This document shows positions 1-61,366 of a DNA stretch of 64,000 bases, one piece after another; the stretch's first letter is position 1; every line of letters begins with the position of its first letter. The notes below the pieces were generated by a model. The model made no database searches. It was given only the letters and a program-made list of their open reading frames with translations, and was not told the origin of the DNA. A program made the position numbers and the translations under genes. The DNA comes from Eledone cirrhosa (Eukaryota): contig OZ024744.1 in NCBI GenBank assembly GCA_964016885.1, forward strand, positions 31,682,001 to 31,746,000. The letters are read 5' to 3'.

Positions 1-1310
1 AAACATCTGAAGTTAGAAGGTCAGAACAATGCAGATTTGGAGATAGAATATAAATGTAAAAGATAACGCTGACAATTAGTCGTTTACCTTAACTTATTCA
101 TATATCCTGATATTTCGAGATTCGTCTGAGGAAAGTAAAGGGGTTAATCCAGTTTTCGAAGTGGGTTGCTAAGTCATGCTGACCGGAAGTAGTATAAAGT
201 TCTATTCTACTTCTTATGTCAAAGAGTGAAGGTTTGAGCAGGTCAAGTGAATAAAGAGTTGTCTCCCTTTAAAAGGATTGGACATGTATGTCTAAGTGTG
301 TGTGTGTGTGTGTGTGTGTAAGAGAATACGTAAAGGTGTAAACATGTGTGTGTGTGTGAGTGTGAGAGGATACGTGAAGATGTAAATATGAGGGCTAGAT
401 GTTCTACCATGTTAAAAATTGGGTGTTGAGTTCTAATATATTATTGATTGGTGGTTGCGTTTTGTCTATAATTAATGCTTTTTTAATTCTAAGATTGCCA
501 AGGTTTCTTTCCTTAGCTTCTATCCTAACTATTATGTTTTAGTTGATGTTTTTACATTTTCCTAGGTGTTTCTTAAATGAGGAAGCGTTAGTGTTGAGGT
601 GTTCTTTTATTCTAATGTGAAGTTGTCTGGTGGTGCTACCTACGTATAAGTCGTTGCATTTGTCGCACTCTAATCTGTAGTCGACGTATGCCTGGTGGCA
701 TAGGTCTGTGTCGTCGATGGGGAAGTTGGCTAGCCTGCAGCGGCTGTCTTGTCCGGTGGAGTGTCTCTTGGCTAGCTGTCTGCGTAGAGAAGGTCCTGAG
801 TGGGCTAGCTGGATATCTAGTCCCTCTCGTCTGATGGAAGTGCGGATGGCCGTTTTAGTTTCATCACTGAAGTGTGGGAGCTTCAAGAAGCAGGTGTTAG
901 TGCTTCGGGTGTGGTGTATTCTGTTGTTTCTGGTACGGTTCGCGGTGGACGTCGGGTATCCGTTCAGTTTAAGTACTTCCAGGAAATGTGTGGTGTGTGT
1001 GTCTCGGTCTCTTGCGTCGGTGCATTTGTTCCGGATACGTTTTAGTTCGTTCCTTATGTATCCGAACTTAGCGCTGACTGGGAGGGCCGACCTGAAATGG
1101 ACGAACAGGTCCCTGTTGGTGGCTTTTTTTATAGAAGCAGGTGTGGGTGTCGCCTTCCTCTGTTACCCTGAGTTGGAAGTCTAATAGGGATAGGGATCCA
1201 CGGTCATCGGAGTGTTCCATGCTGAACTTTATATTGGCGTCCATGCTGGAGAATGTTATTCGCTTCTTCACGGGATGATGTAAGGATGAGTATGTCATCT
1301 ACATAGGTGA
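1..1310 (-). mobile_element. Penelope-like element 3' fragment (RT C-terminus + GIY-YIG endonuclease + pLTR), frameshifted
   Basis: Minus-strand peptides IKFSMEHSDDRGSLSLLDFQL and YRLECDKCNDLYVGSTTRQLHIRIKEH; similar to the PLE at 62320-64000; bases 1-105 recur in the palindrome at 42951-43147. Confidence 0.85.
105..132 (-). ncRNA. Degenerate minimal hammerhead motif in PLE pLTR
   Basis: Minus strand tcct CAGACGA atctc GAAA ta TC agga; 4-bp stem I; U4>A core change; essentially no stem II. Confidence 0.4.
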
Positions 1311-4016: not shown

Positions 4017-4900
4017 CTAGCCGAATTACCCGCGCCTTGTTGCGTTTCACACATTTTTTTTTGCAAGAAAATGTTTGATTTTAAATCAGTGATATAATTT
4101 ATGGAGAAGAACTCTGCATTTCAATATTACTCAATGTAAAATGTAATGCATGAAAAATTGGAAAATATTATTTTTTGTAATATAGTCATTCTGAGTTCAA
4201 ATCCCACCGAGGTTAACTTTGCCTTTCATCCTTACGGGGTCTATAAAATAAAGTACCAGTAATGCACTGGGTAAATGCTGGCCTTGTGCCAAAAGTAGAA
4301 ACAATTATTTTTTGTAATATATCAAATCAAAATTACATTATTAAATCTTATTCTTATTTTGTTTCTTGTAAATAATTTTTTTCAAAATATCAATTCAAAA
4401 CTTTTGTGAATAGGCATCATAACTTGTGATTTACCTATGGGTTAAATTTCATATAAATCGAAGGGAAAAAATTTGCAGCGGGGGTTTGTGCCTCCGGGGA
4501 ACCCTAATGTGGGGGTTAACTCCCATTAGGGTGTCTTAATATTATTGAAATTTGCTGAAATTTTGTGAATAGGCATCATATCTTGTGATTTACCTATGGT
4601 TTAAATTTCATATGAATCGAAGGGAAACTATTTTTAGCAGGGGTTTTGTGCCCCCGAGGAACCCATTGATTAAAATGGAATATACTTATCCAAGTACCCA
4701 GGGCAATGTAGTTTCAGAATATATGTGGTTATAACCATAGGAGTAGTTCGTGAAAATCAGTAATTTTTCTAGGTTGTCTCCGTTGATTTTTTTCCAAACC
4801 AGAATTAGTCGTTTAGTTTACATATTGAGACTCCAACCCATCCTATTTATTTTATAACTTATGGGATTTCTAGTAATGTATGTTTTGGGCCATATGTTAT
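4017..4900 (-). mobile_element. Probable non-autonomous Helitron (3' end at 4017) with internal direct repeats
   Basis: Minus strand ends gcgcgggtaattcggCTAG/T into (TA)n; ~110-bp repeats near 4400 and 4560; left extent uncertain. Confidence 0.5.
4187..4308 (+). mobile_element. tRNA-derived SINE (main family), 5'-truncated
   Basis: gagttcaaatcc (B-box-like) followed by gaggttaactttgcctttcatccttacggggtc..gtaccag..gtagaaacaattatt. Confidence 0.85.
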
Positions 4901-7040: not shown

Positions 7041-7315
7041 AAAACAACCGTGGGAAAATGTTTTTACTTGCTACGCATCCCTGAGTAATAAATGACCACT
7101 TCATGGCAATTACTGCACCTTGTTCGACAACAACCAACAATATTGGCTTCACGGTTGGCTAAATCAGCCAAGTCACTTGAGGGAATCCTCCTCCTCCTCC
7201 TCACTCTATCCACCCCACTCCCATCGCCACTTCCCACTCACTGCACCTGTTGAAATACACCTGTTCCGCAATTTTTCAAATAGATTTTTTTGTCTGTTGC
7301 TTATTATTACTTTTC

Positions 7316-7505
7316 GGTGGATTGGCAGTATCGGTAGAGGGCCGGACGCCATGTTTTGCCGCATAGAGTTACGGCCCTTTATGGTCTGAGTTCAAATCCC
7401 CGCCGAGGTTAACTTTGCCTTTCATCCTCACGGGGTCGATAAAGTAAAGTACCAGTAATGCACTGAGTAATTGCTGGCCTTGTGCCTAAAGTAGAAACAA
7501 TTATT
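7316..7505 (+). mobile_element. tRNA-derived SINE (main family), near full length
   Basis: ggtggattggcagtatcggtagag..gttcaaatcc..gcctttcatcct..gtagaaacaattatt. Confidence 0.9.
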
Positions 7506-7511
7506 ACTTTT

Positions 7512-7907
7512 CCTGCTGCTGCTGTTGTTGTTGCTACTGTTGTTGATGTTGTTGTGGTTGTTGTTGTGGTTGTTGTTGCTCTTGTTGCTGCTGCTATTGT
7601 TGTTGTTGTTGTTATTGTTGTTGTGGTTGTTGTTGCTCTTGTTGCTGCTGCTATTGTTGTAGTTGTTGTTGTTGTTGTAGTTGTTGTTGCTGTTGTTGTT
7701 GTTGTTGTTGTTGTTGTTGCTGCTGCTACTGAAGCTGTTGTTGTTGTAGTAGTAGTAGTAGTTGTTGTTGTTGCTGCTGCTGCTACTGAAGCTGCTGTTG
7801 CTGTTCTGCCACTCCTGCTGCTGATAGTCTTCTTTTACTTGGTCTTGCTACTGTCATTGTTAATATTTATCGTGATGTTTGTTGTTGCTTATTAATGCTG
7901 CTGCTGC

Positions 7908-11883: not shown

Positions 11884-12469
11884 TATTGTTATACTTTGGG
11901 AGGGTCATGTTGCCAATAAGAAACACACGCACCAGTTGCTTTCACTTCAATTTATTATTATAATAAATTTATAATAAATTTATAAATTTATAAATTTCTG
12001 GTTGGTTGGTTGGTTCCACAACCAGATAGTTGTTTATATATTGTCATAGTTCTTTCGTCACACACTCTGTGACCTCTTCAGTGACTGGGGATTCCTTTCT
12101 TTGTTTCTGTGCCTCTCCTTTGTTCTGTCCTACGCCATTTTGTTTCTGTGTGAAACAAAATGGCGTAGGACAGAACAAAGGAGAGGCACAGAAACAAAGA
12201 AAGGAATCCCCAGTCACTGAAGAGGTCACAGAGTGTGTGACGAAAGAACTATGACAATATATAAACAACTATCTGGTTGTGGAACCAACCAACCAACCAG
12301 AAATTTATAAATTTATAAATTTATTATAAATTTATTATAATAATAAATTGAAGTGAAAGCAACTGGTGCGTGTGTTTCTTATTGGCAACATGACCCTCCC
12401 AAAGTATAACAATATCGGTTTCAACACACGATTTCAGATAAAGAATCTTGCTAAACAAATTCAAAAACG

Positions 12470-14803: not shown

Positions 14804-14858
14804 GGTCGCAATCTTTAAGGGTATGTCAATATTTATTTATAAAACTGCTCTATATTAT

Positions 14859-14921
14859 ATTTTATCTGATGAAAGCACACCATAATTTAACTTGGTGTCC
14901 TTGAAATATGTATAATGAAAT
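14859..14921 (+). ncRNA. Type I hammerhead in solo pLTR (14800-15055) of the family at 50957-54371
   Basis: attttat CTGATGA aag c acacca..tggtgt c ctt GAAA tatgta TA atgaaat. Confidence 0.8.
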
Positions 14922-15051
14922 AAATATGGTTTTATAATTAAAGTTTCCATTTGTTAATATATCGTATTTTTTCTCCAATAATTTATTGAGTGCTTTATAT
15001 TAGTTATAAAAATATTTGCTTGTTTTATCCCAACAATTTAAATAGAACTTC

Positions 15052-15086
<35 letters not shown>

Positions 15087-16624: not shown

Positions 16625-16958
16625 AGACATAGACATTTCGCTCTCTCTCTCTGATCGATCGACATGATCCCAGACCTCGCCAACGCGGACCAAGGTTACA
16701 ATGTACTATCTACCGATCTCAACTCCTGACAGAAAGAGCAGAAAGATAAACCTGAAATAAAGGACACAACGAACAACCCACTCCGAGAATTGAACTCCCA
16801 ACCTCACGGCTACAAATGCAGCTCTCTAATCACTAAGCCTTCACACACACACACGCACGCACACACACACACGCATACAAACGAATACACACATATATAT
16901 ATACACATACATTTATATATCATTTGGATTTTATTCTTTTCACATTTATTATTATTAC

Positions 16959-21629: not shown

Positions 21630-22403
21630 TAATTGTTTCTACTTTAGGCACAAGGCCAGCAATTTGAAGGAGTGAGGAAAGTCGATTGAATTGAACCCAG
21701 TCTGTTACTGGTACTTTATTTTATTAAAGCTAACCACGGCAGGATTTAAATTCAGAACGTGGAGGGCCGTAACTATATACCGCAAAGCATGGCCGACGCT
21801 CTACCGACACTGCCAATTCATCCCAAATTACTTAATAAATAATAAACTGAGTTAAATGTAAAGTAAACATCTAATAATTGTTTTTGCCACTCATTACGGA
21901 TCTAGATTTTCTTGGGCCGCACTGAGCACACCTGACGCCACCTGGGGCTCTATATAGAATTATCCAGACAATTGACACTTTCTTAGCGGTTTTATGGCAA
22001 ACCCATAGACACTTATGGTTGTTTCTACTTTTGGCACAAGGCCAGCAAATACCCAGTAAATTACTGGTACTTTATTTTATCGATCCCGTAAGGATGAAAG
22101 GCAAAGTTAACCTCAGCGGGATTTGAACCCAGAATGGCAAGTGCCGTAACTCTATGCATCAACGCATGGTGTCCGACCCTCTACCAATACTGCCAATCCA
22201 CCGCCATCTAATAATTGTTTCTACTTTAGGCACAAGGCCAGTAATTACCCAGTACATTACTGGTACTTTATTTTATCGACCCCGTAAGGATGAAAGGCAA
22301 AGTTAACCTCGGAGGGATTTGAACTCAGACCATAAAGGGACGTAACTATTTGCTGCAAGGCATGGCGTCCGTGCCTCTACCGATACTGCCAATCCACCGC
22401 CAT
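21630..22403 (-). mobile_element. Three main-family SINE copies, two of them head-to-tail (22019-22403)
   Basis: Reverse-complement SINE consensus ending ..ccaatccaccgccatct. Confidence 0.88.
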
Positions 22404-23068
22404 CTAATAATGCTTATTGATTACTGAAGCATGTCATATTCTGAAAATCGAATTCGCATATTGCATTCATGGAAAGGATGAAGGTAAAGTTGCCCTCGGC
22501 AGTATTTGAACTCAGAGAGGAGAGAGAGCCGGAACAAATACCACAAAATATTCTATCCGACTTTCTAACTCTGCTCTCTAAGTTCAAATCCCTTTGTGGT
22601 CGATAAAGAAAGTACCAGTCTAACACTGTGGTCGTTCGTGTCTTCTTATATATCTCTTTCTCGTTTCCATTCCTTCACTGAAAGAAATCTGTTCTATTCA
22701 GACCTAACCCCCCCCACACACACACACACACACACCTGACTAATCTATATACAAGCAGGTATGGTCTCATAACACTGAAAGGATTCGTAGGGGCGCTGTA
22801 TTGATATACGATGCTTCTAGGGGTATCTTTTTAAAAAATGTGGCGGAGCCTGTCACATCTCTACGTCTGAATAGAACAGATTTCTTTATTTCTTTCAGAG
22901 AAGGAGGAAGACAGTGAAGGAATGGAAACGAGAAAGAGATATATATGAAGACACCACTGCAGTGTTAGACTGGTACTTTCTTTATCGACCACGAAGGGAT
23001 TTGAACTTAGAGAGCAGAGAGCCGAAACAAATACCACAAAGTATTCTATCGACTCGGCCAATTTACCG

Positions 23069-24209: not shown

Positions 24210-27988
<3,779 letters not shown>

Positions 27989-38854: not shown

Positions 38855-38910
38855 ACTGCTATATATATTTCGATGATAGCCATTGAATGTCTTTGACCTC
38901 ATCAAGCAGT
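38855..38910 (-). ncRNA. Type I hammerhead with C3>U change
   Basis: Minus strand actgc TTGATGA g..c GAAA tatata TA gcagt. Confidence 0.62.
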
Positions 38911-42950: not shown

Positions 42951-42955
<5 letters not shown>

Positions 42956-43145
42956 ATCTGAAGTTAGAAGGCCAGAACAATGCAGGTTAGGAGATAGAAT
43001 ATAAATGTAAAAGATAACGCTGACAATTAGTCTTTTACCTTAACTTATTCATATATCAGGTAAACGACTAATTGTCAGCGTTATCTTTTACATTGATATT
43101 CTAGCTCCAAACCTGCATTGTTCTGGCCTTCTAACTTCAGATGTT

Positions 43146-43147
<2 letters not shown>
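42951..43147. repeat. Fold-back hairpin of a PLE pLTR end (~88-bp arms) in (TA)n
   Basis: Left arm matches window bases 1-105; right arm is its inverse. Confidence 0.88.
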
Positions 43148-43176
<29 letters not shown>

Positions 43177-43362
43177 TCAAGCAAACTACCAATTCATTCA
43201 TATATATATATTCTTTGCTTAAACTTTAATCTGTTATTTTAATAAATATATATATATATATATAGTAATAATAATAAATTTGAAAAACTAAAATCCAAAG
43301 AGGGCTCGATAAGGATAAATATATATATCAGATATATAAGAACCGTAGAGCAAATAATAATA

Positions 43363-45245: not shown

Positions 45246-48200
45246 GGCGACCGTTGTGGTCAGTGTCCGATAATCGGACGTGTGTAATTACGGCTTACAT
45301 GAAGGCAACATACCATATATTGGAAAAAGGTTGAGCTACATTACGCGGTAAGATTACATACAATAATTCTACATAAGTGTTTGAACTGTAAGTGTGTTGT
45401 AAAACACCTATTTATATGAACGATACATACACTTATGATATATGAACGATACATATACTTTAACATATAAATGCAACGTTGTTATATTACATTTATAAAG
45501 AAATATAAAAGTAACGTTTTCGATTCAGAAACAAAAATATAAGTGTTTGAACTGTGAATGTTGTGAATATGTTGTAGAACACCTATTTATATGAATGATA
45601 CATAAACTTTAACATATAAATACAGCGTTGTTATATTATATTACATTCGTAAAGGAATATACTAAGTAACGGTTCTTTTTGTTCTCGATTCAAACGATTC
45701 AAGAACAACGTTTAAAACACAGTTGTAGAATTAAAAACTAACTGAAAAGAAATATTACCCAAGCTGTGAATAACTTTAAATTTGATTCTGACAGAACTTT
45801 GTCGTAACTTTTAAAGAAGATCATCGACTATTTAAAAAAAAATAAATACAAAATATTAGTGAATAGACGAACTCATCATGGCAAAAAGTACAAGTCTCCT
45901 TCGACCAAATCGCAATTACAACCGTTGTATACAGTGGAGCTACGAGCTTAACAAAGAATTATATGAAGCATACAAACAATCTGAACCCCAAAAGTTCGGT
46001 TTTATGCAAAGGCTAACAACTTTATGGAACTCCAAACACCCAGAATTAGACTTTTCTCCAAAGCATCTAAATGAACAGGCAAAACGTATCATTAGATGTA
46101 AATTGATACATCTAACGGAATCGAGTGATACTACAAATACAGCCCTTGTAGACAACCACCCCACCTCCACTGACAGACAAAGAGAATGGCCGGCTAAATC
46201 TAACAGTGAACAGCTCACCAACAATTTTGCTGAAATCCATCCCACTTCCACTGAAGAACAGCGAGAAAGGTCAGCTGACTCTAGTAGTAAGTGTCACCAC
46301 ATCAACAACGAGGCTGCAATTCATGACTCTACTGAACAAACAGAGCACCAAAAACTTGTGGGCACCCTACAAGTGATATGGAACGATATGTTTCAAGAGA
46401 TACACAGCCTTAATGTGAGTGACAGACCATACAACACTAGAGTCAGTAAAGAACCCACTAAATTGGAATTGGAAGCGGTGAACGAAATAGCTGGCAATTA
46501 TCTGAAGGCTATACGATCTAAAGGTGTAGAAACGACATTTGAAACGCTCAATGTTTTGTTATATGTTTCAGCTGTCACATTGCTATCATATAACACACAT
46601 CTAAAACCACGCAATCAAGATACAAACAGAAAGCCTGAACCAGCGTGGATGCGAAATTTAAAAACCAAAATTTTGTCCCTGAGACGAAGTATCTCACACA
46701 TCGCAGTCGTTATGAAATGCAACATAGAGAGAAACTTCACACGACACCAGGAAGACCTAAAGAAAAAGTTAGAGAGACGATTTGGAGATACCAAATTTAA
46801 AACTTTGAACTCCAAATTACACCAGTTGAAACAACAACTCACAGCTACAACAGAAAGACTAAAATATAAGTCAACAGCCCATAAACGACAAGTGCTAAAT
46901 AGATTGTTTGCCAGAGATCCTAAATCAGTTTATCGCAGCTTCGGTGGCAAAAGCTCAATCCCTGTAAACGACACCCCTTCAAAAGAACAGGTTGAGAACT
47001 ACTGGAGATCTGTATGGGAAACGGATGACGGATTCAACAGACAAGCTAATTGGCTAAAACAACTGGAACAGGACTACTGCCAACATGTCCAGACAAAACA
47101 ATATGACATAGATGGGTCAATACTGGAAACAGCTCTACAGAAAATGTCGAATAGGAAATCGCCAGGCCCAGACCTCATTACAGGATACTGGTTGAAGAAT
47201 TTCACTTTCTATCGGCAAGATCTCATACGGCTGTTTACAGAAACCATTAAGGGCACACAAGAACTGCCCAGATGGTTATCAACTGCCACTACTCTCCTCA
47301 TTCCCAAAAATAGCCAAACCACCCTTGCTAAAAATTACCGCCCAATTGCCTGCCAAAACATCATGTATAAATTATATACTGGGTGCCTTAACCTGTTCTT
47401 ACAGGATCACTGTGCTACCAACAACATCATAACACCTGAGCAAGCTGGTGGAAAGAGGGAGGTGTGGGGTTGCATAGATCACCTACTAACTAACAAAATG
47501 ATTCAGGAAAAAACAACAAAGAATCGCAGAAACATGACTGTCGTGTGGCTGGACTATCAAAAAGCATTTGATAGTGTACCTCATGGGTGGATTATTAAGG
47601 CTTTACAGTTAGCTAAAGTCCCACAACCATTAGTAGCTGCTGTTGAACGCCTGACCAAGAACTGGTACACCAATTTGATCCTTAGAGGTGAGAAGGAGCA
47701 GGTTAAGACTGATAGGATACATTACCAGAAGGGCATCTTTCAGGGTGATAGCTTGTCAGTACTACTCTTCGTTCTCTCACTGAATCCACTATCTTACCTA
47801 CTCAGGAAACAAGGTGGACAAAGAAGTGGGCCCAGAAGTATCTCCCATCTTTTCTTTGTTGATGACCTGAAGTTGTATGGGCCAAATATCAATGACATCA
47901 ATAAACAATTGGACCTCATTACACAATTTTCAACCGACATCAAAATGAAATTTGGTGAGTCCAAGTGTGCATATTTGGCAGTAAAACGTGGAAGAGCTGT
48001 GCCCTCCTCTAGAAATCTAGATATGAACGGCCTGACAATACAACCTCTGCAGTCAGGTGACAACTACAGATATCTTGGACAGGATGAGAATGTCAGATAT
48101 GATGGACCCATAAATAAGGAGAGAACCAGAACTGAATACCTCAGAAGAGTAAAAAAAATATGGTCATCAGAACTGTCAGCATACAACAAATACATTGCCC

Positions 48201-49470
48201 ACAATACCTATGCTGTGCCAATTCTAACGCCAACATTTGGCCTACTGAACTGGTCATTGCAAGAACTAAGTGAGATGGATGTTAGAACTCGAAAACTTCT
48301 CAGTGTTACTGGGAACTTTAACATCAATGGTGATGTGGATAGGCTATACTTCTCACGCAAGGAAGGTGGCCGGGGTCTAAAATCAATATTAACAACATAT
48401 GAGACCCGGATAGTAACACTGAAGCAACACCTTCAACAGAGGAAAAAGGTTGGCGACCATCTTGCTCAGGTTTATGAGCATGAAAAAAGAAATATCATTA
48501 GAATAGCGACTGATCTGGAGGAGAGATATGGAATAAAGCCTGATATAAATCTCTCACCCAGAGAAATCGGAAGATCCTATTCAATGTTCAAACAAGAAAA
48601 AAAAATTGACCAATTTACAGAGAAAGTTGTGCATGGATACTTGAGGCGTAAAACACAGACCATAGAGGGGATAAACCACTCAAAAAGCCTGGCATGGAGT
48701 TCCGACAAGTTTATGACATCACACCTTGAGGGATATCTCTATGCAATACAGGAACAAGAACTCCCTACCAAATATCTGCTGCACAAAAGAGGAGGGCCAG
48801 CAGCTGACAATAAATGTAGGCTATGTAAAACAAAGATCGAGGATGTAAGCCACATTGTTGCCAGCTGCGAAAGAATGTCATCTCGCTACTACCTCCCCAT
48901 GAGACACGATGGGATAGCTAGAACTATCTGGAACGCACTTCGGAAAACAAAATTAACAACAAACGAGGAAGAATATATTGAGACAGATGGCACTAAGGAA
49001 TACTGGTGGAACCTGAAAATAAAAACTGCCACCAAATTAAAGCACAACCGGCCTGATATTGTAGTTTGGGACCACACACTGAAAACGTGTTCTGTTGTGG
49101 AGATCAGCTGCCCACTTGATGTAAACGTTGTCAGAAAAATACAGGAGAAGGAGAACATCTACGGACCATTGATGAGGAGCTTACAAATCCAGTATCCAAG
49201 ATACACCTTTAGCTTCATACCCATCATTATTGGTGCTACGGGTTATATACCAACCCGCTTGGACCAAAGTATGACCGAACTTGGATTTGCGGACAAAAAG
49301 CGCAGCTCCCTAATTCATAGTCTACAAATGGCTGCGATAGCTGGCACCTTCAAAATATGCAAAACATTCTTGCGATTCAAGGGATGACAATTTCTTTTCT
49401 TTTACAACCTTGCCACCAGGAAGGTGGCCGGTCAAAAAAATATACTCGAAATTAAGAGAAAGAGAAAACA
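45246..49470 (+). mobile_element. Apparently full-length R4/Dong-type (RLE) non-LTR retrotransposon in (TACA)n
   Basis: Single intact ORF; ~630-bp 5' UTR with internal repeats; (TACA)n on both flanks. Confidence 0.92.
45878..49387 (+). CDS. Reverse transcriptase with CCHC zinc knuckle and restriction-like endonuclease (1169 aa)
   Basis: KSPGPD, NYRPIAC, WLDYQKAFDSVPH, GIFQGDSLS, LFFVDDLKLY, YRYLG, CRLCKTKIEDVSHIVASC, RHD, RPDIVVWD..EISCP..K. Confidence 0.95.
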   Translation: MAKSTSLLRPNRNYNRCIQWSYELNKELYEAYKQSEPQKFGFMQRLTTLWNSKHPELDFSPKHLNEQAKRIIRCKLIHLTESSDTTNTALVDNHPTSTDRQREWPAKSNSEQLTNNFAEIHPTSTEEQRERSADSSSKCHHINNEAAIHDSTEQTEHQKLVGTLQVIWNDMFQEIHSLNVSDRPYNTRVSKEPTKLELEAVNEIAGNYLKAIRSKGVETTFETLNVLLYVSAVTLLSYNTHLKPRNQDTNRKPEPAWMRNLKTKILSLRRSISHIAVVMKCNIERNFTRHQEDLKKKLERRFGDTKFKTLNSKLHQLKQQLTATTERLKYKSTAHKRQVLNRLFARDPKSVYRSFGGKSSIPVNDTPSKEQVENYWRSVWETDDGFNRQANWLKQLEQDYCQHVQTKQYDIDGSILETALQKMSNRKSPGPDLITGYWLKNFTFYRQDLIRLFTETIKGTQELPRWLSTATTLLIPKNSQTTLAKNYRPIACQNIMYKLYTGCLNLFLQDHCATNNIITPEQAGGKREVWGCIDHLLTNKMIQEKTTKNRRNMTVVWLDYQKAFDSVPHGWIIKALQLAKVPQPLVAAVERLTKNWYTNLILRGEKEQVKTDRIHYQKGIFQGDSLSVLLFVLSLNPLSYLLRKQGGQRSGPRSISHLFFVDDLKLYGPNINDINKQLDLITQFSTDIKMKFGESKCAYLAVKRGRAVPSSRNLDMNGLTIQPLQSGDNYRYLGQDENVRYDGPINKERTRTEYLRRVKKIWSSELSAYNKYIAHNTYAVPILTPTFGLLNWSLQELSEMDVRTRKLLSVTGNFNINGDVDRLYFSRKEGGRGLKSILTTYETRIVTLKQHLQQRKKVGDHLAQVYEHEKRNIIRIATDLEERYGIKPDINLSPREIGRSYSMFKQEKKIDQFTEKVVHGYLRRKTQTIEGINHSKSLAWSSDKFMTSHLEGYLYAIQEQELPTKYLLHKRGGPAADNKCRLCKTKIEDVSHIVASCERMSSRYYLPMRHDGIARTIWNALRKTKLTTNEEEYIETDGTKEYWWNLKIKTATKLKHNRPDIVVWDHTLKTCSVVEISCPLDVNVVRKIQEKENIYGPLMRSLQIQYPRYTFSFIPIIIGATGYIPTRLDQSMTELGFADKKRSSLIHSLQMAAIAGTFKICKTFLRFKG

Positions 49471-50887: not shown

Positions 50888-50959
<72 letters not shown>

Positions 50960-51474
50960 GCAAAAGTTCTATTTAAATTGTTGGGATACAACAAGCAAAT
51001 ATTTTTATAACTGATATAAAGCACTCGACAAATATTTGGAGTAGATATACGATATTAATAAATGGAAACTATATTTATAAAACCATATTTATTTCATTAT
51101 ATATATTTCAAGGATACCAAGTTAAATTATGGTATGCCTTCATCTGACAAAATACAATATATAACAGTTTTATAAATAGACATTGACGTTCCCTTTTAAA
51201 AAGTGACCGATGCTTTTGGAGGCCATCAGGATAGTGGTTTGTTTACTTTAGTAAGTCATAGTGTTAAGAGTAAGTAAAAAGATGGAGAGAGAGAGAAACG
51301 TGGAGAAAAGAAAGGGAGAGATAGATAAAGAAAAAGAAGAAAGGAAAAAGAAAAGAGAACAGAGGAAAATAACTTAAAATAACTTAAAATTACTTAAAAT
51401 TATGGAAAGAGAGAAGTGAGGTTATCGATTGGTTTAAAGAAATTAAATATAACTATAATAATAAGTTTATTCAG

Positions 51475-52932
51475 TTGGATATTGCTAACTACTACTCATC
51501 TATCACTCCTAATCTACTGAATAAGGCACTAACTTACGCATTTAAACATACAGACCTAACTAGCAATGAAATGCACATTATATTATCGGCACGGAAAACA
51601 TTAATAGAATTTAATAACCAACTCTGGACTAGGGCAGATAGAAATAATAATTTCGATATAACTATGGGATCTTCAGACTCAGCTCAGGTAACGGACCTTG
51701 TGGGCCTATTTATAATTAATTCTCTACATAGAAAAATACCAGGTGTAACCGGAGGCTTATATCGTGACGACATGCTTTTACTTATAGAAAATAATAGCTG
51801 TGAACTAAATAGAAAAAGAAAACAAATTATACAATTTTTTAATTACCTTAATCTAAAAGTAGAAATAGAGAATAACCATAAAATAGTCAATTTTCTAGAT
51901 GTAACACTAAATCCCAACACATGTCTTCATTATCCATTTTACAAACTAAATGAGAACTTAAATTATGTCAATTTTAACTCTAATCACCCCAGATCCGTTA
52001 AAAATACTATAGTGAACTCTGTTCAAGAACGAATTTCAAGAATTTCATCTAATAAGAATATATTTGATGAAAAAGCGCATTATTACAACGAAGCGTTAGG
52101 TAGAGCTGGGTATAGAAATAAAATTAAATACATCGATAATAATAATATACAAAATAACCAAAATAATAACAACCTTAATTATGGTAACAATTTCAACAAC
52201 TATAATAGAAAATATTACAATAACTCCGAAAGCCGAAAAAGAAATAGAACTAGGAATATATTATGGTTCGCTCCTCCTTTCTCACTAAATATTAAAACCC
52301 CTATTGCTAAACTATTCTTTAAAGCTCTTGACAAACGGTTCCCTAGAACACATAAATATTACTCAATTTTTAATGGACATACTATAAAATTAACTTATTC
52401 TTCCACCAAAAATTTTGCGCAAAATATTAATAGAATTAATAATAGAAATTTAAAACCTAACCAAAATACCAATAATAGCCCAAGCAATATTCAATCGAAT
52501 AACTGTAACTGTAGAAATAAATCCAACTGTCCGTTAAATAACAACTGCTTAGCTAAAAATGTAGTTTATAATTGTAATGTTAAAACTAATTTAAATTCAT
52601 TTAACTATGTCGGTTCTACCTCTACAGAATTTAAATCCCGCTTCAATAATCATAACAATTCTTTTACAGATCCAAACAAAAAATCTTCAACTTCGCTATC
52701 TAGCCTATTATGGGACCTAAAACGAGATAATGTTGAATATTCGCTTATTTGGAATATTATTTCAAAAGCTACTCCTTTTAATTCCTCTTCAGAAAATTGT
52801 GACCTTTGTATGGAGGAAATATTTTTTATATTAAAGACCTACAATTCCCTTAATTTAAGGAATAATTTATTCAGTTGCTGCAGACATAGATTGAACTCAA
52901 CGTTTAAATATAAATATAAATTTAAAATGTAG
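51475..52932 (+). CDS. PLE polyprotein, open C-terminal part (RT core, Cys linker, GIY-YIG)
   Basis: DIANYYSSI, FDITMGSSDSAQVTDLVG, GLYRDD, VNFLDVTL, CNCRNKSNCPLNNNCL, VVYNC..YVGST..KSRFNNH; N-terminus missing. Confidence 0.88.
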   Translation: MDIANYYSSITPNLLNKALTYAFKHTDLTSNEMHIILSARKTLIEFNNQLWTRADRNNNFDITMGSSDSAQVTDLVGLFIINSLHRKIPGVTGGLYRDDMLLLIENNSCELNRKRKQIIQFFNYLNLKVEIENNHKIVNFLDVTLNPNTCLHYPFYKLNENLNYVNFNSNHPRSVKNTIVNSVQERISRISSNKNIFDEKAHYYNEALGRAGYRNKIKYIDNNNIQNNQNNNNLNYGNNFNNYNRKYYNNSESRKRNRTRNILWFAPPFSLNIKTPIAKLFFKALDKRFPRTHKYYSIFNGHTIKLTYSSTKNFAQNINRINNRNLKPNQNTNNSPSNIQSNNCNCRNKSNCPLNNNCLAKNVVYNCNVKTNLNSFNYVGSTSTEFKSRFNNHNNSFTDPNKKSSTSLSSLLWDLKRDNVEYSLIWNIISKATPFNSSSENCDLCMEEIFFILKTYNSLNLRNNLFSCCRHRLNSTFKYKYKFKM

Positions 52933-54264
52933 TTTAATTAATTAAGTAATTTAGTTAATATATGAAACCTGTCGATAAATCATTAGATTCCTTCACTTTT
53001 TTTATTTTATTTTTTTTTATTTTTATTCTGATAGCTTCTCATAATTTTCAAAAGTTTGTCCTTTCAATATCTTGATTAAAATATAGGTAAGATAAATTTC
53101 TATACTAAATATATTAAACATATTATTTTAACTTAAAATATTCTATAATATTTTGGGATATTTTAGTATTTTGATATTTGTAGAATTCGTTTGCGTTTTA
53201 AGTTATATTGATATAATTATATTTCCAAAATATAATCCTTTTGTATTTTATATACTCAATTGTACTATGTTATATATTGATGTATACTTATGTCTATATA
53301 CGGCTTATGTATCTATATATGTGTATTGACATACATATACATGTGTTATATGCTTTTTTGTGATTATATGTCTGTCTGTATATATGCATGAGTGACGCGT
53401 GTATACCAATTGGGTGAAGATGCACACACATATCTATTCATGTATAGCTAAGAATTATGGGTGGGAATGTACAGGCTTACACATGCAGTTTTTGATTGCA
53501 GATATGCATAACTTAACAGCCATAGATGCATGAAAGTTAATCCTATATATTTTATATATATATACTAAATTTTTTTAATTAATAACACAAGGAATGTATA
53601 GCAATAAATAAAGAATCACTTATGCTTTGTATGTATATATTATATGCGGGAGTAGATATAGTGTGTATTTTCTGAGTGAGTGTGTATATATATATATTTA
53701 TGTACCTTTGCCTATGTGTATGTGATATACGATAGGTAATTTCTCTAGCAATATATATATTTTATAATGTTTAAATTCCAATTTTTAATATATTGATCTC
53801 AATTTTTAAACTAAATATCTAATCATAATTAAGCAATGTGTAATTTCTCATATTATATATCTATATTCCATTCATGAATATTAATATTTCTAATTTTATT
53901 TATTCATTTCATCTCAATTGTTAACTCAACTTAATATGACATAACTTAAGGTTTTCGTTCTCTCCCCTCCCCCCCCTCTCTCTATCTCTATATATCTCTC
54001 TCTTGAGTTTTTTCTCTGTCTGATGGTTTGATATCTCCCCGTTATTTTCCTCTGTTCTCTTTTCTTTTTGCTTTCTTCTTTTTCTTTATCTATCTCTCCC
54101 TTTCTTTTCTCCACGTTTCTCTCTCTCTCCCTCCATCGGTTTACTTACTCTTAACACTATGACTTACTAAAGTAAACAAACCACTATCCTGATGGCCTCC
54201 AAAAGCAACGGTCACTTTTTAAAAGGGCACGTCAATGTCTATTTATAAAACTGTTATATATTGT

Positions 54265-54327
54265 ATTTTGTCTGATGAAGGCATACCATAATTTAACTTG
54301 GTATCCTTGAAATATATATAATGAAAT
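54265..54327 (+). ncRNA. Type I hammerhead in pLTR (inverted copy ~51091-51153 has CAGATGA)
   Basis: attttgt CTGATGA agg c atacca..tggtat c ctt GAAA tatata TA atgaaat. Confidence 0.82.
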
Positions 54328-54367
54328 AAATATGGTTTTATAAATATAGTTTCCATTTATTAATATC

Positions 54368-54413
<46 letters not shown>

Positions 54414-54514
54414 GATATTAATAAATGGAAACTATATTTATAAAACCATATTTATTTCATTATATATATTTCAAGGATACTAAGTTATGTATATATATAT
54501 ATATATGTATATAT

Positions 54515-57359: not shown

Positions 57360-57810
57360 TAGGTTCAATTCTCGAACCGGGCTTTGTGTTGTGTTCTTTA
57401 GACACTTTATTTCACGTTACTCCAGTTGATTCAGCTGAGTTGTGACGTCAATGGTGTCAAGCTGTGTCGGTCATTACCTTTCCCTTGGACAGCACCGGTG
57501 ACGTTGAGATGAGAGACTAGTATGTATGGGCAACTGCTGGTCTTCTACTAACAATCTTGCCTCGGATGGGGAACTTTCTAGGGGCAAATCCCATGGTCAT
57601 TCATGACCGAAGGTGGTCTTTACTGTTTACCTTTATATGCACTATATATAATCTTGTCCAAAAGAAAGACAAAGGTTAATACAGCTTGGCCCCAGTGAAG
57701 CACGGGCAAACAGGACCAACTTGAAAGGAAATGCTTTGCTCAACGACGCAACACACCACCCGGTGTGGAAATTGAATCCACGACGTTTCCACCGCTAACT
57801 ACTAGGCCTA
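57360..57810. mobile_element. Old tRNA-derived SINEs of a second family (plus 57360-57635; minus 57680-57810)
   Basis: ggttcaattctc B-box-like motif followed by gttgtgttc..gacactttatttcacgttactccag; reverse ggaaattgaatccacgac. Confidence 0.55.
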
Positions 57811-59412: not shown

Positions 59413-59772
59413 TTTGGTAAAAGAAAGTCCTCAGGTCATTTGATTTCAAAACGTGCCGAACACACCTTTCCTAGGTCGATGAAATAAAGTACCAGTCAGA
59501 GACGTTCAATAGTTTAAAGTCTCTGAAGAGATACCTTGCAGTGTTTGTTCTGCTTCATTGTGTTCTGAATTTAAATATCGGTTTTACATCATTGCCTTAT
59601 TTCTTGATTGTCTCTATGAGGCACACACTGTTACAGACATTTGAGTTTGACCTCCTATTCGAATGATACCTTCATCACTTCAACCAAGCCCCGAGGCTGC
59701 AAGTTCAATTCTCGGACCGGTTTTAGGAAGCCGTAGCTATGCAAACACCGTGGGCTAACGCCCTCTGGTGAT

Positions 59773-59866
59773 GTCCAGCAGAAGCAAGGGGGGACAACCG
59801 TCTATGCATTTCAGGCTAACTGGCCTTCGTCAGGACGGTCCCTCCGACCGCTTGCGACTGCTGGAC
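59773..59866 (-). ncRNA. Canonical GC-rich type I hammerhead ribozyme with long stem I
   Basis: Minus strand accgtc CTGACGA aggc cagtta gcct GAAA tgca TA gacggt; stem I extends to gtccagcag/ctgctggac. Confidence 0.9.
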
Positions 59867-59925
59867 TAGATACGAAATATTTATACATATTGTATAAAGC
59901 TATGCTTGAAGCGAAATCCTAATTC

Positions 59926-60065
<140 letters not shown>

Positions 60066-60099: not shown

Positions 60100-61262
60100 T
60101 TTTTATTATTATTTTTTTATTTTGCTTTATGTTCGTATGAAATATCACCAAGTCACAACCAGTGACCTCAAGAGACAACAAGGTCCGCTATGTTCAAGAA
60201 AGAACATACATACACACACATGTATCTTTAGGTGTTTAGACTTCTGATGTACTTATATTGACAGAATCTTCCTTGGTATATGGACATTTCCCATTAGTAC
60301 TATCTTTTGTATTTCTACTATACGTGGTCTTTCTGGGATTTGGGATAAGTAATCATTAGGCCCATTAGGTATCATTCATAGAGCGCCTACAACCACTGGT
60401 ATTGTTTTAGTTCTCAATTTCCACATTTTTCCAATTTCTATCTCCAGGTCCTTATACTTGCTCAATTTTTCAAATATTTTTATAGATACATTCTTGTCTA
60501 TTGGAACGAACATATCAATTAGCAGGCATACCCTCTTTTTAAAGTCCTTCAGTATTTTATCAGGTCTACTTGCATCTATTTTTCGGTCTGTTTGGATGCT
60601 AAAGTTCCACAAGATTGGGATGTGATCTTTTTCAAGTACGGGAGGTGGTTGATGCTCCCACCAATTCTTTTCATGGGCAGGTCAAAATGCTGACACATTA
60701 TCCAATGTATGTATTGTGCAGCTCTGTCGTGCCTGTTTAGGTATTCGGTTGGAGCTATATAGGACTGCACATTGAAATTATATGATCAATGGTCTCTGGT
60801 TGATTTTTACATACACGGCATAATGGGTTGCGTCCATTTTTCATGATGTTGGCTAGATAATTTTTGTTGGCAGACACTGATCTTGTGCTGATATAATCAA
60901 TCCTTCAGTCTCCGATTTCAGTCCAGAGGATGCCAACCACTGATGGGTTAAAGTTTTGTCACCATCAGGATTGTTAGCTCTTTCTGGGTATTTTCCATAC
61001 AGAGGCTTTTCTTGCCATTTCTTAGCCAGTTTCTGTAGCAGTTCTTTCTTTGCAGTTACTTTTACCTGCTTTGCTTTTTCTGTGTTTTCCATTTCAGCAG
61101 TAAATGGAACTTCTGAAATTTGTAATTCATTACTGTATCTTTGTGCATCTTTTGTAATGGAGAATGATCTTTTGATGCTTTCATGTTTCAAAACGAGTTT
61201 GATCATCCAATCATGTGATTCCCTTAGATATGTAGATAATCCAATTGTTGCAGTTTTCAAAC
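60100..61262 (-). mobile_element. 3' fragment of a second RLE (R4-like) non-LTR family, frameshifted
   Basis: LKSETEGLIISAQDQ, YLNRHDRAAQYIHW, ASRPDKIL..LLIDMFVP..KLSKYKDLEIEI..IPVVVGAL. Confidence 0.85.
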
Positions 61263-61366
61263 AATATCTAACTGCTGTTTAGTTCTACACCAATATAGTT
61301 ACTAGAAACTGCGCATCGAATGCTCACTCTGGTGAACCTACACTAACTGGATGTTACAATCCCCCG

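Follow-up and report, generated by a model that had tools for sequence, protein, structure and literature searches.

A hammerhead ribozyme motif of Eledone cirrhosa probably lies in a truncated, partly inverted end of a Penelope-like element

Penelope-like elements (PLEs) are described with inverted 5'-truncated arms, an optional one-sided tail, microhomology junctions without a target-site duplication (TSD), and targeting of microsatellites (PMC3846280; 10.1101/2021.04.23.441226); the tail is given as 30–40 bp in the literature. The lizard element PAc was shown to nick and extend both strands of AT-rich DNA and to start reverse transcription at two internal sites bounding the tail (PMC11167929). 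The first site of PAc lies 111–118 nt into the ORF and its hammerhead cuts at +26, that is, the site lies 85–92 nt after the cut (PMC11167929). Two-site, two-strand priming is described there in vitro, and so far for this one lizard element only.

Non-LTR retrozymes are described as head-to-tail tandem repeats of 150–450 bp with a hammerhead in each, and the tandem retrozymes are reported to be themselves PLE-derived (10.64898/2026.07.22.740005). A canonical geometry with 6-bp and 4-bp helices is described as fitting tandem retrozymes more than the minimal hammerheads of animal PLEs (PMC4209133; PMC7229834). Among hammerheads in general, the G10.1-C11.1 pair is reported to be highly conserved (PMC4209133), and a contact between loops 1 and 2 is described in which the seventh base after the cut, a U, meets an A of loop 2 (PMC9217987).

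Here we describe a hammerhead locus in a window of 64,000 nt, by which we mean the whole stretch of DNA that was analyzed. An earlier note on this window had delimited the feature as 59690–59880, while the hammerhead-bearing repeat spans 59718–59930 (213 nt). We consider this repeat to be probably the dead remnant of a terminus (pLTR plus tail) that carries the hammerhead in a Penelope-like family of very high copy number, whether autonomous or not. On the best reading, the parent is a Penelope-like element or a Penelope-derived retrozyme, and its membership of an ORF-bearing family is putative. The features of the locus are the following.

59687..59720, plus strand: scrap from the 3' half of a tRNA-derived SINE head, containing the B-box (similarity to two SINE heads)
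59718..59720, no strand: left junction, 3-nt microhomology between SINE scrap and inverted arm (SINE similarity ends at 59720, repeat contigs start at 59718)
59718..59867, minus strand: block A, inverted 5'-truncated arm with the hammerhead, 150 nt (depth, fold, GC content)
59773..59866, minus strand: long stem I extension (rod) closing the hammerhead (inverted repeat and MFE structure)
59796..59840, minus strand: type I hammerhead (motif descriptor search, sequence read-out, folding)
59868..59870, no strand: inversion junction, 3-nt microhomology (opposite-strand joints, and loose ends at 59718, 59868 and 59870)
59868..59930, plus strand: block B, non-inverted 3'-terminal tail-like piece, 63 nt (depth, joints to block A)
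59930..60062, no strand: (AT)23.5 then (AG)41.5 microsatellite abutting the 3' end (repeat scan)

The type I hammerhead at 59840–59796 (minus strand, as are all its parts) is real as a sequence and fold motif, though not quite a textbook one. Stem I is formed by six Watson-Crick pairs (59839–59834 with 59802–59797) and a G-U pair (59840/59796), the core CUGACGA (59833–59827) fits the CUGANGA consensus, and stem II (59826–59813) has 4 bp and a 6-nt loop with A59817 as its terminal base. GAA lies at 59812–59810 (GAAA at 59812–59809), followed by the helix III palindrome AUGCAU (59809–59804) and the NUH site AUA (59805–59803), in which A17 is 59803 and the predicted cut falls between 59803 and 59802. 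The rod adds about 25 further pairs and includes two 19-nt arms (59866–59848 and 59791–59773; inverted repeat I1, 84%). The fold closed by this rod has z = -3.19 (equal stability in 1 of 200 shuffles), and pair probabilities are 0.89–1.0 for helix I and 0.97–0.99 for helix II. Position 7 after the cut is U (U59796) and loop 2 closes with A59817; the MFE structure pairs U59796, the candidate loop-contact base, with G59840 at a probability of 0.65. A descriptor demanding a stem I of at least 6 and a stem II of at least 4, thresholds chosen after the match was known, had this one match in the window and none in 300 dinucleotide shuffles, and a looser descriptor had three matches in the window, two of them within a Penelope-type repeat.

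The 6-bp stem I, 4-bp stem II, palindromic stem III and long stem I extension that the earlier note had read on the minus strand were all recovered by motif search and folding. Its words perfect and textbook do not stand, because the pair 10.1-11.1 that opens stem II is A-U in this copy, with G-C absent, and two local Rfam scans at E≤10 (2 and 1 matches) returned no hammerhead family. Among the 150 of 277 Rfam matches listed for the whole window at E≤1, all were microsatellite-driven miRNA or snRNA noise. Hammerhead pattern scans of metagenome, viral and prokaryote collections gave 0 matches each, as expected for an animal repeat.

The locus had also been put forward as the best single candidate for activity, which we find doubtful. 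Helix III has a pair probability of 0.0 in the folded monomer, its closing costing 5.4 kcal/mol, and no second copy or tandem of the repeat was found within the window; the solitary copy is therefore a weak candidate, predicted from folding to cleave weakly or not at all. As a lone, flipped copy it would likewise be a poor one. The AUGCAU self-duplex amounts to -4.7 kcal/mol in folding, and the cofold MFE of two copies is a double hammerhead (-95.9 versus 2 x -46.1 kcal/mol), a calculation that leaves out concentration and the kinetic cost of swapping the 25-bp rod. This double-hammerhead fold agrees with the dimer model of cleavage (PMC4209133). The axolotl HHR_Amex1 is described as weak in the monomer, with 6% cleavage in 1 h (PMC7229834), and the hammerhead of PAc required protein (PMC11167929). 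In the parent element the hammerhead would thus most likely cut as a dimer or with the help of protein: the AUGCAU palindromes of two copies would together form a helix III of 6 bp, with cleavage after AUA, and such dimer cutting, judging from the folding and from known PLE and retrozyme behavior, would trim tandem or read-through transcripts.

Four public sequencing runs were mapped on 59520–59925 (406 nt), of which X1–X3 are contigs of one sample and X4 consists of reads of another. The mapping contigs numbered 1,964 of 16.3 million records in X1, 2,102 of 16.5 million in X2 and 2,074 of 17.1 million in X3. Those of X1 were divided into 420 at least 99% alike, 683 at 95–99%, 625 at 90–95% and 236 below 90%, so that the family holds both young and older members. 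We did not take the summed contig depth as a measure of copy number, and infer that the family comprises thousands of copies. Block A has 58% GC, a depth of 25,000–139,000 (X1–X3), stops in all three frames and a fold with z = -4.22 that none of 200 shuffles equaled in stability. Block B has 27% GC, a depth of 41,000–140,000 over 59870–59925 (X1–X3) and an 8-bp hairpin at 59880–59898 (I10), its overall fold showing no excess (z = -0.08). Other copies extend upstream of 59867, with 30 letters beyond block A visible; a 12-nt motif from this upstream sequence had one match at one mismatch with 0.93 expected, that is, chance. The copy at 59718–59930 carries private letters at 59846 and 59751, where 99.7% and 85% of the X1 depth, respectively, has the other letter.

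Variation in the other copies was read from the 40 difference rows listed, out of 63. In X4, the consensus of 207 loose-end reads (agreement 0.91; perhaps from a single locus) has the core CUGAUGA and a change of the stem II pair 59824/59815 from G-C to A-U on both sides, and the change at 59824 is seen in 15, 15 and 11 contigs of X1–X3. A change at 59838 (28, 26 and 32 contigs) and one at 59798 (loose-end consensus of 36, 31 and 36 contigs) would together preserve pair 5 of stem I, each having been seen on separate molecules. These stem changes may be signs of selection on the hammerhead fold. Loop 2 differs in length between copies and retains its final A, the cleavage site is AUA or AUC, and a C11.1 variant occurs in other copies, with its partner base lying outside the visible sequence. 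Core-breaking letters at 59830 and 59831 are present in 4–6 contigs.

The order of the two blocks differs between this locus and the rest of the family. At least four joint rows among the 15 listed link 59718–59720 to 59868/59870 on opposite strands (11, 18 and 16 contigs; 26 X4 reads), showing that other copies carry A and then B on the same strand and that block A is flipped in this one. The native order in other copies is upstream sequence, hammerhead rod, 85 nt, AT-rich hairpin and block B. Block A carries the 85 nt downstream of the cut site, and some 11 nt of the AT-rich hairpin, by which A and B are connected in other copies, are absent here. At least seven further distinct joints have A broken at 59742–59867 before a B starting at 59868–59891, the same layout as in this copy; these sister joints are each seen in one contig per run at depth 5–13 (or in 8 reads), and similar single-contig skips occur inside block A. 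Three of the seven are not deletion products of 59718–59930, because they contain letters that this copy lacks. The position of the 3' end on (TA)n is known from this copy alone, the mapped stretch having ended at 59925. No repeat of at least 4 nt of the left flank end was found to the right of block B or of the microsatellite as a TSD. An 8-nt direct repeat at 59735/59898 was rejected as a TSD, being one of three 8-mers in 541 nt with both copies inside the repeat.

The window is rich in Penelope-like fragments and thus offers an internal control. A Penelope-like family with an RT-GIY-YIG ORF at 51388–52932 (E 8e-4) has an inverted hammerhead end before the ORF (51146, minus strand) and a direct end after it (54272, plus strand), and its hammerheads have an A-U pair opening stem II, a palindromic helix III and a long rod. 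Among five aligned ends of this family, two have an extension of 87 nt and the other three end some 53 nt past the cut, both kinds being on (TA)n. This two-end layout is the same as that of blocks A and B. The similarity of our repeat at the DNA level to two PLE ends tested was not significant (73 and 132 of 500 shuffles were as good), and it is therefore taken to be a family distinct from that of 51388–52932 and from the end at 1–330. The possibility that block B is related to the 87-nt tail of the 51388–52932 family was rejected, since 217 of 1,000 shuffles were as good, and a match of 43170–43200 to the final 29 nt of block B (21/29) is a weak lead, equaled in 3 of 300 shuffles when (TA)n flanks were compared and in 6 of 60 when the whole window was. 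The tblastn search with eight PLE fragments of the window gave no match between 52929 and 62659. Contrary to the earlier note, which saw no PLE ORF close by, an RT ORF of PLE type with a truncated 5' end begins about 2.4–2.7 kb to the right (62238/62590–64000+, plus strand; RVT_1 E 4e-11), and 8 of 54 listed relatives of it also carry GIY-YIG (PF01541). Microsatellites and a LINE fragment lie between this ORF and the repeat, and nothing links the two.

Several other element ends were observed in the window. The 51388–52932 family is AT-rich, spans 50958–54487 and 14817–15083, and has a tail about twice the usual 30–40 bp; its copy at 51146 has a broken core with U4 changed. The 3' end of another Penelope-like family lies at 1–330 (minus strand; ORF fragment at 539–1162, minus strand) with a decayed minimal-type hammerhead recognized by eye, and two truncated copies of this end are placed head-to-head, inverted, between (TA)n runs at 42952–43146. 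A hammerhead-like motif at 38905 (minus strand), with one core mismatch, a long stem II and a palindromic helix III, may represent a fourth family. Short (TA)n-flanked stubs are found at 43170–43200 (plus strand) and 39978 (minus strand), and a perfect inverted repeat with arms of about 40 bp at 12102–12196 is probably another head-to-head element end.

We propose that the stump at 59718–59930 arose from two reverse-transcription primings on one RNA. The first would have started from a nick in (TA)n, at the outermost 3' end of the RNA, and copied block B only. The second, internal and at the hairpin base, would have used an opposite-strand nick in the old SINE scrap via a 3-nt match and produced a 150-nt copy in reverse orientation, with the hammerhead inside it. 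Both short cDNAs would then have been joined via another 3-nt match with about 11 nt lost, and the target DNA between the nicks would have been lost too, which would explain why neither a TSD nor a SINE body is seen. The 85 nt between the cut and the end of the inverted arm agree with the 85–92 nt of PAc, which may be a coincidence. Two traits of the ends of endonuclease-bearing (EN+) PLEs are present, namely a hammerhead in a dispersed 5'-truncated terminal repeat and, on the 5' flank of the insertion, an arm that is both inverted and 5'-truncated; against a PLE end, the tail-like part of about 74 nt exceeds 30–40 bp, that of the window's PLE family being 87 nt. By analogy, the repeat seems to work like a PLE end, and its membership of an autonomous PLE is putative.

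The alternative that survives best is that the locus holds one isolated and rearranged copy of a tandem non-LTR retrozyme, an element of head-to-tail arrays of a few hundred bases without an ORF parent or a fixed 3' end, whose hammerhead cuts transcripts to monomers that are circularised and re-inserted by a PLE enzyme. The canonical type I geometry, the U at position 7, the loop-2 terminal A and the very high copy number all speak for it, as does the dimer-dependent fold, which suits tandem transcripts, and monomers are reported to make up 0–100% of a family (10.64898/2026.07.22.740005). We nevertheless consider it unlikely, because no tandem copy is present at the locus or in the window, because the recurrent inversion at one hairpin and the (TA)n end match the window's PLE family, and because no joint among those listed ties the end of block B to the sequence upstream of the hammerhead, within a mapped stretch that is short and ended at 59925. 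The third, retrozyme-like family suggested by the earlier note is compatible with our data, which show a distinct, very high-copy family with a type I hammerhead of canonical geometry.

Returning to the Penelope-like end, the flip could in principle have been made by generic LINE-type twin priming or later DNA repair instead of PLE two-site initiation, with any non-LTR element as the mobiliser. The arms do not overlap, there is 3-nt microhomology at both junctions and a small deletion lies between them, which is the pattern of L1 5' inversions, and intact LINE ORFs are present in the window (45863–49387). Twin-priming points should scatter, whereas the direct arm starts at most about 25 nt from one hairpin in seven of the eight inversion-like joints listed (the eighth, 59791<->59841, starts inside block A); with neither a poly(A) tail nor a TSD at the locus, we regard this origin as highly improbable. 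The ORF at 45863–49387 (plus strand) is an uninterrupted non-LTR retrotransposon ORF of 1,174 aa with RVT_1 and zf-RVT and is apparently young, and a decayed fragment at 60853–61278 (minus strand) resembles, by eye, a relative of it.

The earlier note was right in placing a B-box-like motif on the plus strand at about 59703: the 11-mer is located at 59703–59713 and occurs three times in the window versus 0.07 expected. The other two occurrences (16795, minus strand; 57363, plus strand) are heads of a tRNA-type SINE. The scrap is identical to the SINE head at 16811–16782 (minus strand) in 25 of 30 positions and to 57363–57380 (plus strand) in 17 of 18, and the similarity is confined to 59687–59720 (31–34 nt). 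No A-box at one mismatch or fewer was found upstream of the 59703 B-box, while the 16795 copy has one at one mismatch; A-box and B-box were assigned by consensus. ARAGORN found 0 tRNAs in the window, and no SINE body resuming to the right of the insertion was found, the sole match being the (AG)n run. The summed depth in the bin 59702–59715 was 9, 27 and 14 in X1–X3 and 0.64 in X4, and that in the bin after it 42,696, 48,792 and 50,981 in X1–X3 and 377 in X4; the depth over the B-box is 8–27 versus 25,000–140,000 from 59716 on (X1–X3). Loose ends before 59718 (40, 39 and 26 contigs; 170 reads) show different neighboring sequence, and the unique flank is represented by one contig at depth 4–5 in X1 and X2. 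The SINE scrap, which has near single-copy depth, is pre-existing target DNA outside the hammerhead element, and its B-box is the landing site.

That B-box and hammerhead form a SINE-hammerhead composite like the schistosome Sm-alpha, a Pol III head driving a ribozyme transcript, as had been proposed, is scarcely credible, even though the scrap is real and directly adjoins the repeat. The depth step at 59716–59718 and the other neighbor in other copies show that the B-box is not linked to the hammerhead elsewhere, which is what the earlier note had named as refuting the composite, its depth being below 0.1% of that of the hammerhead in X1–X3 (0.64 versus 377 in X4). The scrap has no A-box, the two other SINE copies of the window, when searched, had no hammerhead, and the hammerhead is antisense to any Pol III transcript, an orientation that results from the flip of this copy. 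In addition, a T4 run, which acts as a Pol III terminator, is situated at 59721–59724, 8 nt behind the B-box 11-mer. An assembly artefact, in which the inverted layout was produced from a collapsed repeat, is equally hard to credit, because junctions of this type recur at other breakpoints, both in the short-read contigs and in raw reads from another sample, and the private letters at 59846 and 59751 are as expected of a real single locus, although the inversion junction of this copy is spanned by none of the best 24 of 6,291 pieces and the left junction is crossed by only one contig each in X1 and X2, with 0 differences and 29 letters on the element side (below the 31-letter rule).

Other repeats were noted in passing. 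An abundant tRNA-type SINE, which resembles octopus SINEs, occurs in at least 15 places of the window (e.g., 4187–4322, 7284–7577, 22019–22411, 59474–59496) with a shared 23-nt motif and partly in tandem. In X4, 105 reads with a loose end before 59888 connect block B, at an A|T step, with another sequence whose end consists of a GC hairpin and CTAG; this looks like the 3' end of a Helitron that inserted into one copy. Pieces of a Helitron-like helicase ORF were recognized by eye at 24577–26493.

With the SINE-ribozyme composite set aside as a false lead, the locus illustrates how the flipped remnant of a retroelement can pass for a ribozyme lying antisense within a SINE. Its recurrent inversion at a single hairpin makes the high-copy family well suited to studying how PLEs form their inverted ends and tails, and to the question of dimer cleavage by PLE hammerheads. 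We regard it as an undescribed high-copy family of a known kind. Our search of the literature on hammerheads or retrozymes in octopus or cephalopods found no such family, while supplements and Repbase may hold one; the main text of a 2026 repeat annotation of Octopus vulgaris, which gives 31 recently active Penelope-like families, does not use the word hammerhead. As a tentative suggestion, with a modest chance of being correct, the family might be a non-autonomous, ORF-less Penelope derivative that has thousands of copies, is expressed as circular RNA and has insertions that are flipped repeatedly at a single AT-rich hairpin, 85 nt past the cut. If so, its stumps would be a genome-wide natural record of two-site, two-strand priming, and it would be the first described canonical hammerhead family in a cephalopod genome.

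Compared with known systems, the locus resembles the schistosome Sm-alpha and Sj-alpha repeats as described (PMC2770079) in having a type I hammerhead in a very high-copy short repeat beside a tRNA-like motif. It differs from Sm-alpha, where the tRNA-related part belongs to the repeat unit, in that its counterpart here has no A-box and sits beyond the repeat, on the other strand and at this locus alone. With the animal non-LTR retrozymes described from coral, mussel and axolotl (PMC7229834; 10.64898/2026.07.22.740005) it shares a canonical type I hammerhead, many copies and self-paired RNA, and with the axolotl HHR_Amex1 (PMC7229834) a single-pair helix III capped by a palindromic tetraloop; unlike these retrozymes, it has no tandem repeat at the locus, and A-U replaces G10.1-C11.1. 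From PLE ends, as far as these are described, it differs in that no ORF is tied to 59718–59930 and no long ORF runs through the hammerhead, that the tail-like part measures about 74 nt, that the arms do not overlap, that the helix sizes are canonical and not minimal, and that the GC content is 58%. Like the pLTR and tail ends of EN+ PLEs such as Penelope/Poseidon and Neptune (PMC3846280; PMC11167929; PMC4209133), it has a type I hammerhead with a palindromic helix III in a terminal repeat, and it shares with PLE ends the heavy 5' truncation, the inverted arm, the tail-like extension on one side, the microhomology without TSD, the AT-rich or microsatellite target and an end point that is internal and lies some 85 nt past the site of hammerhead cleavage.
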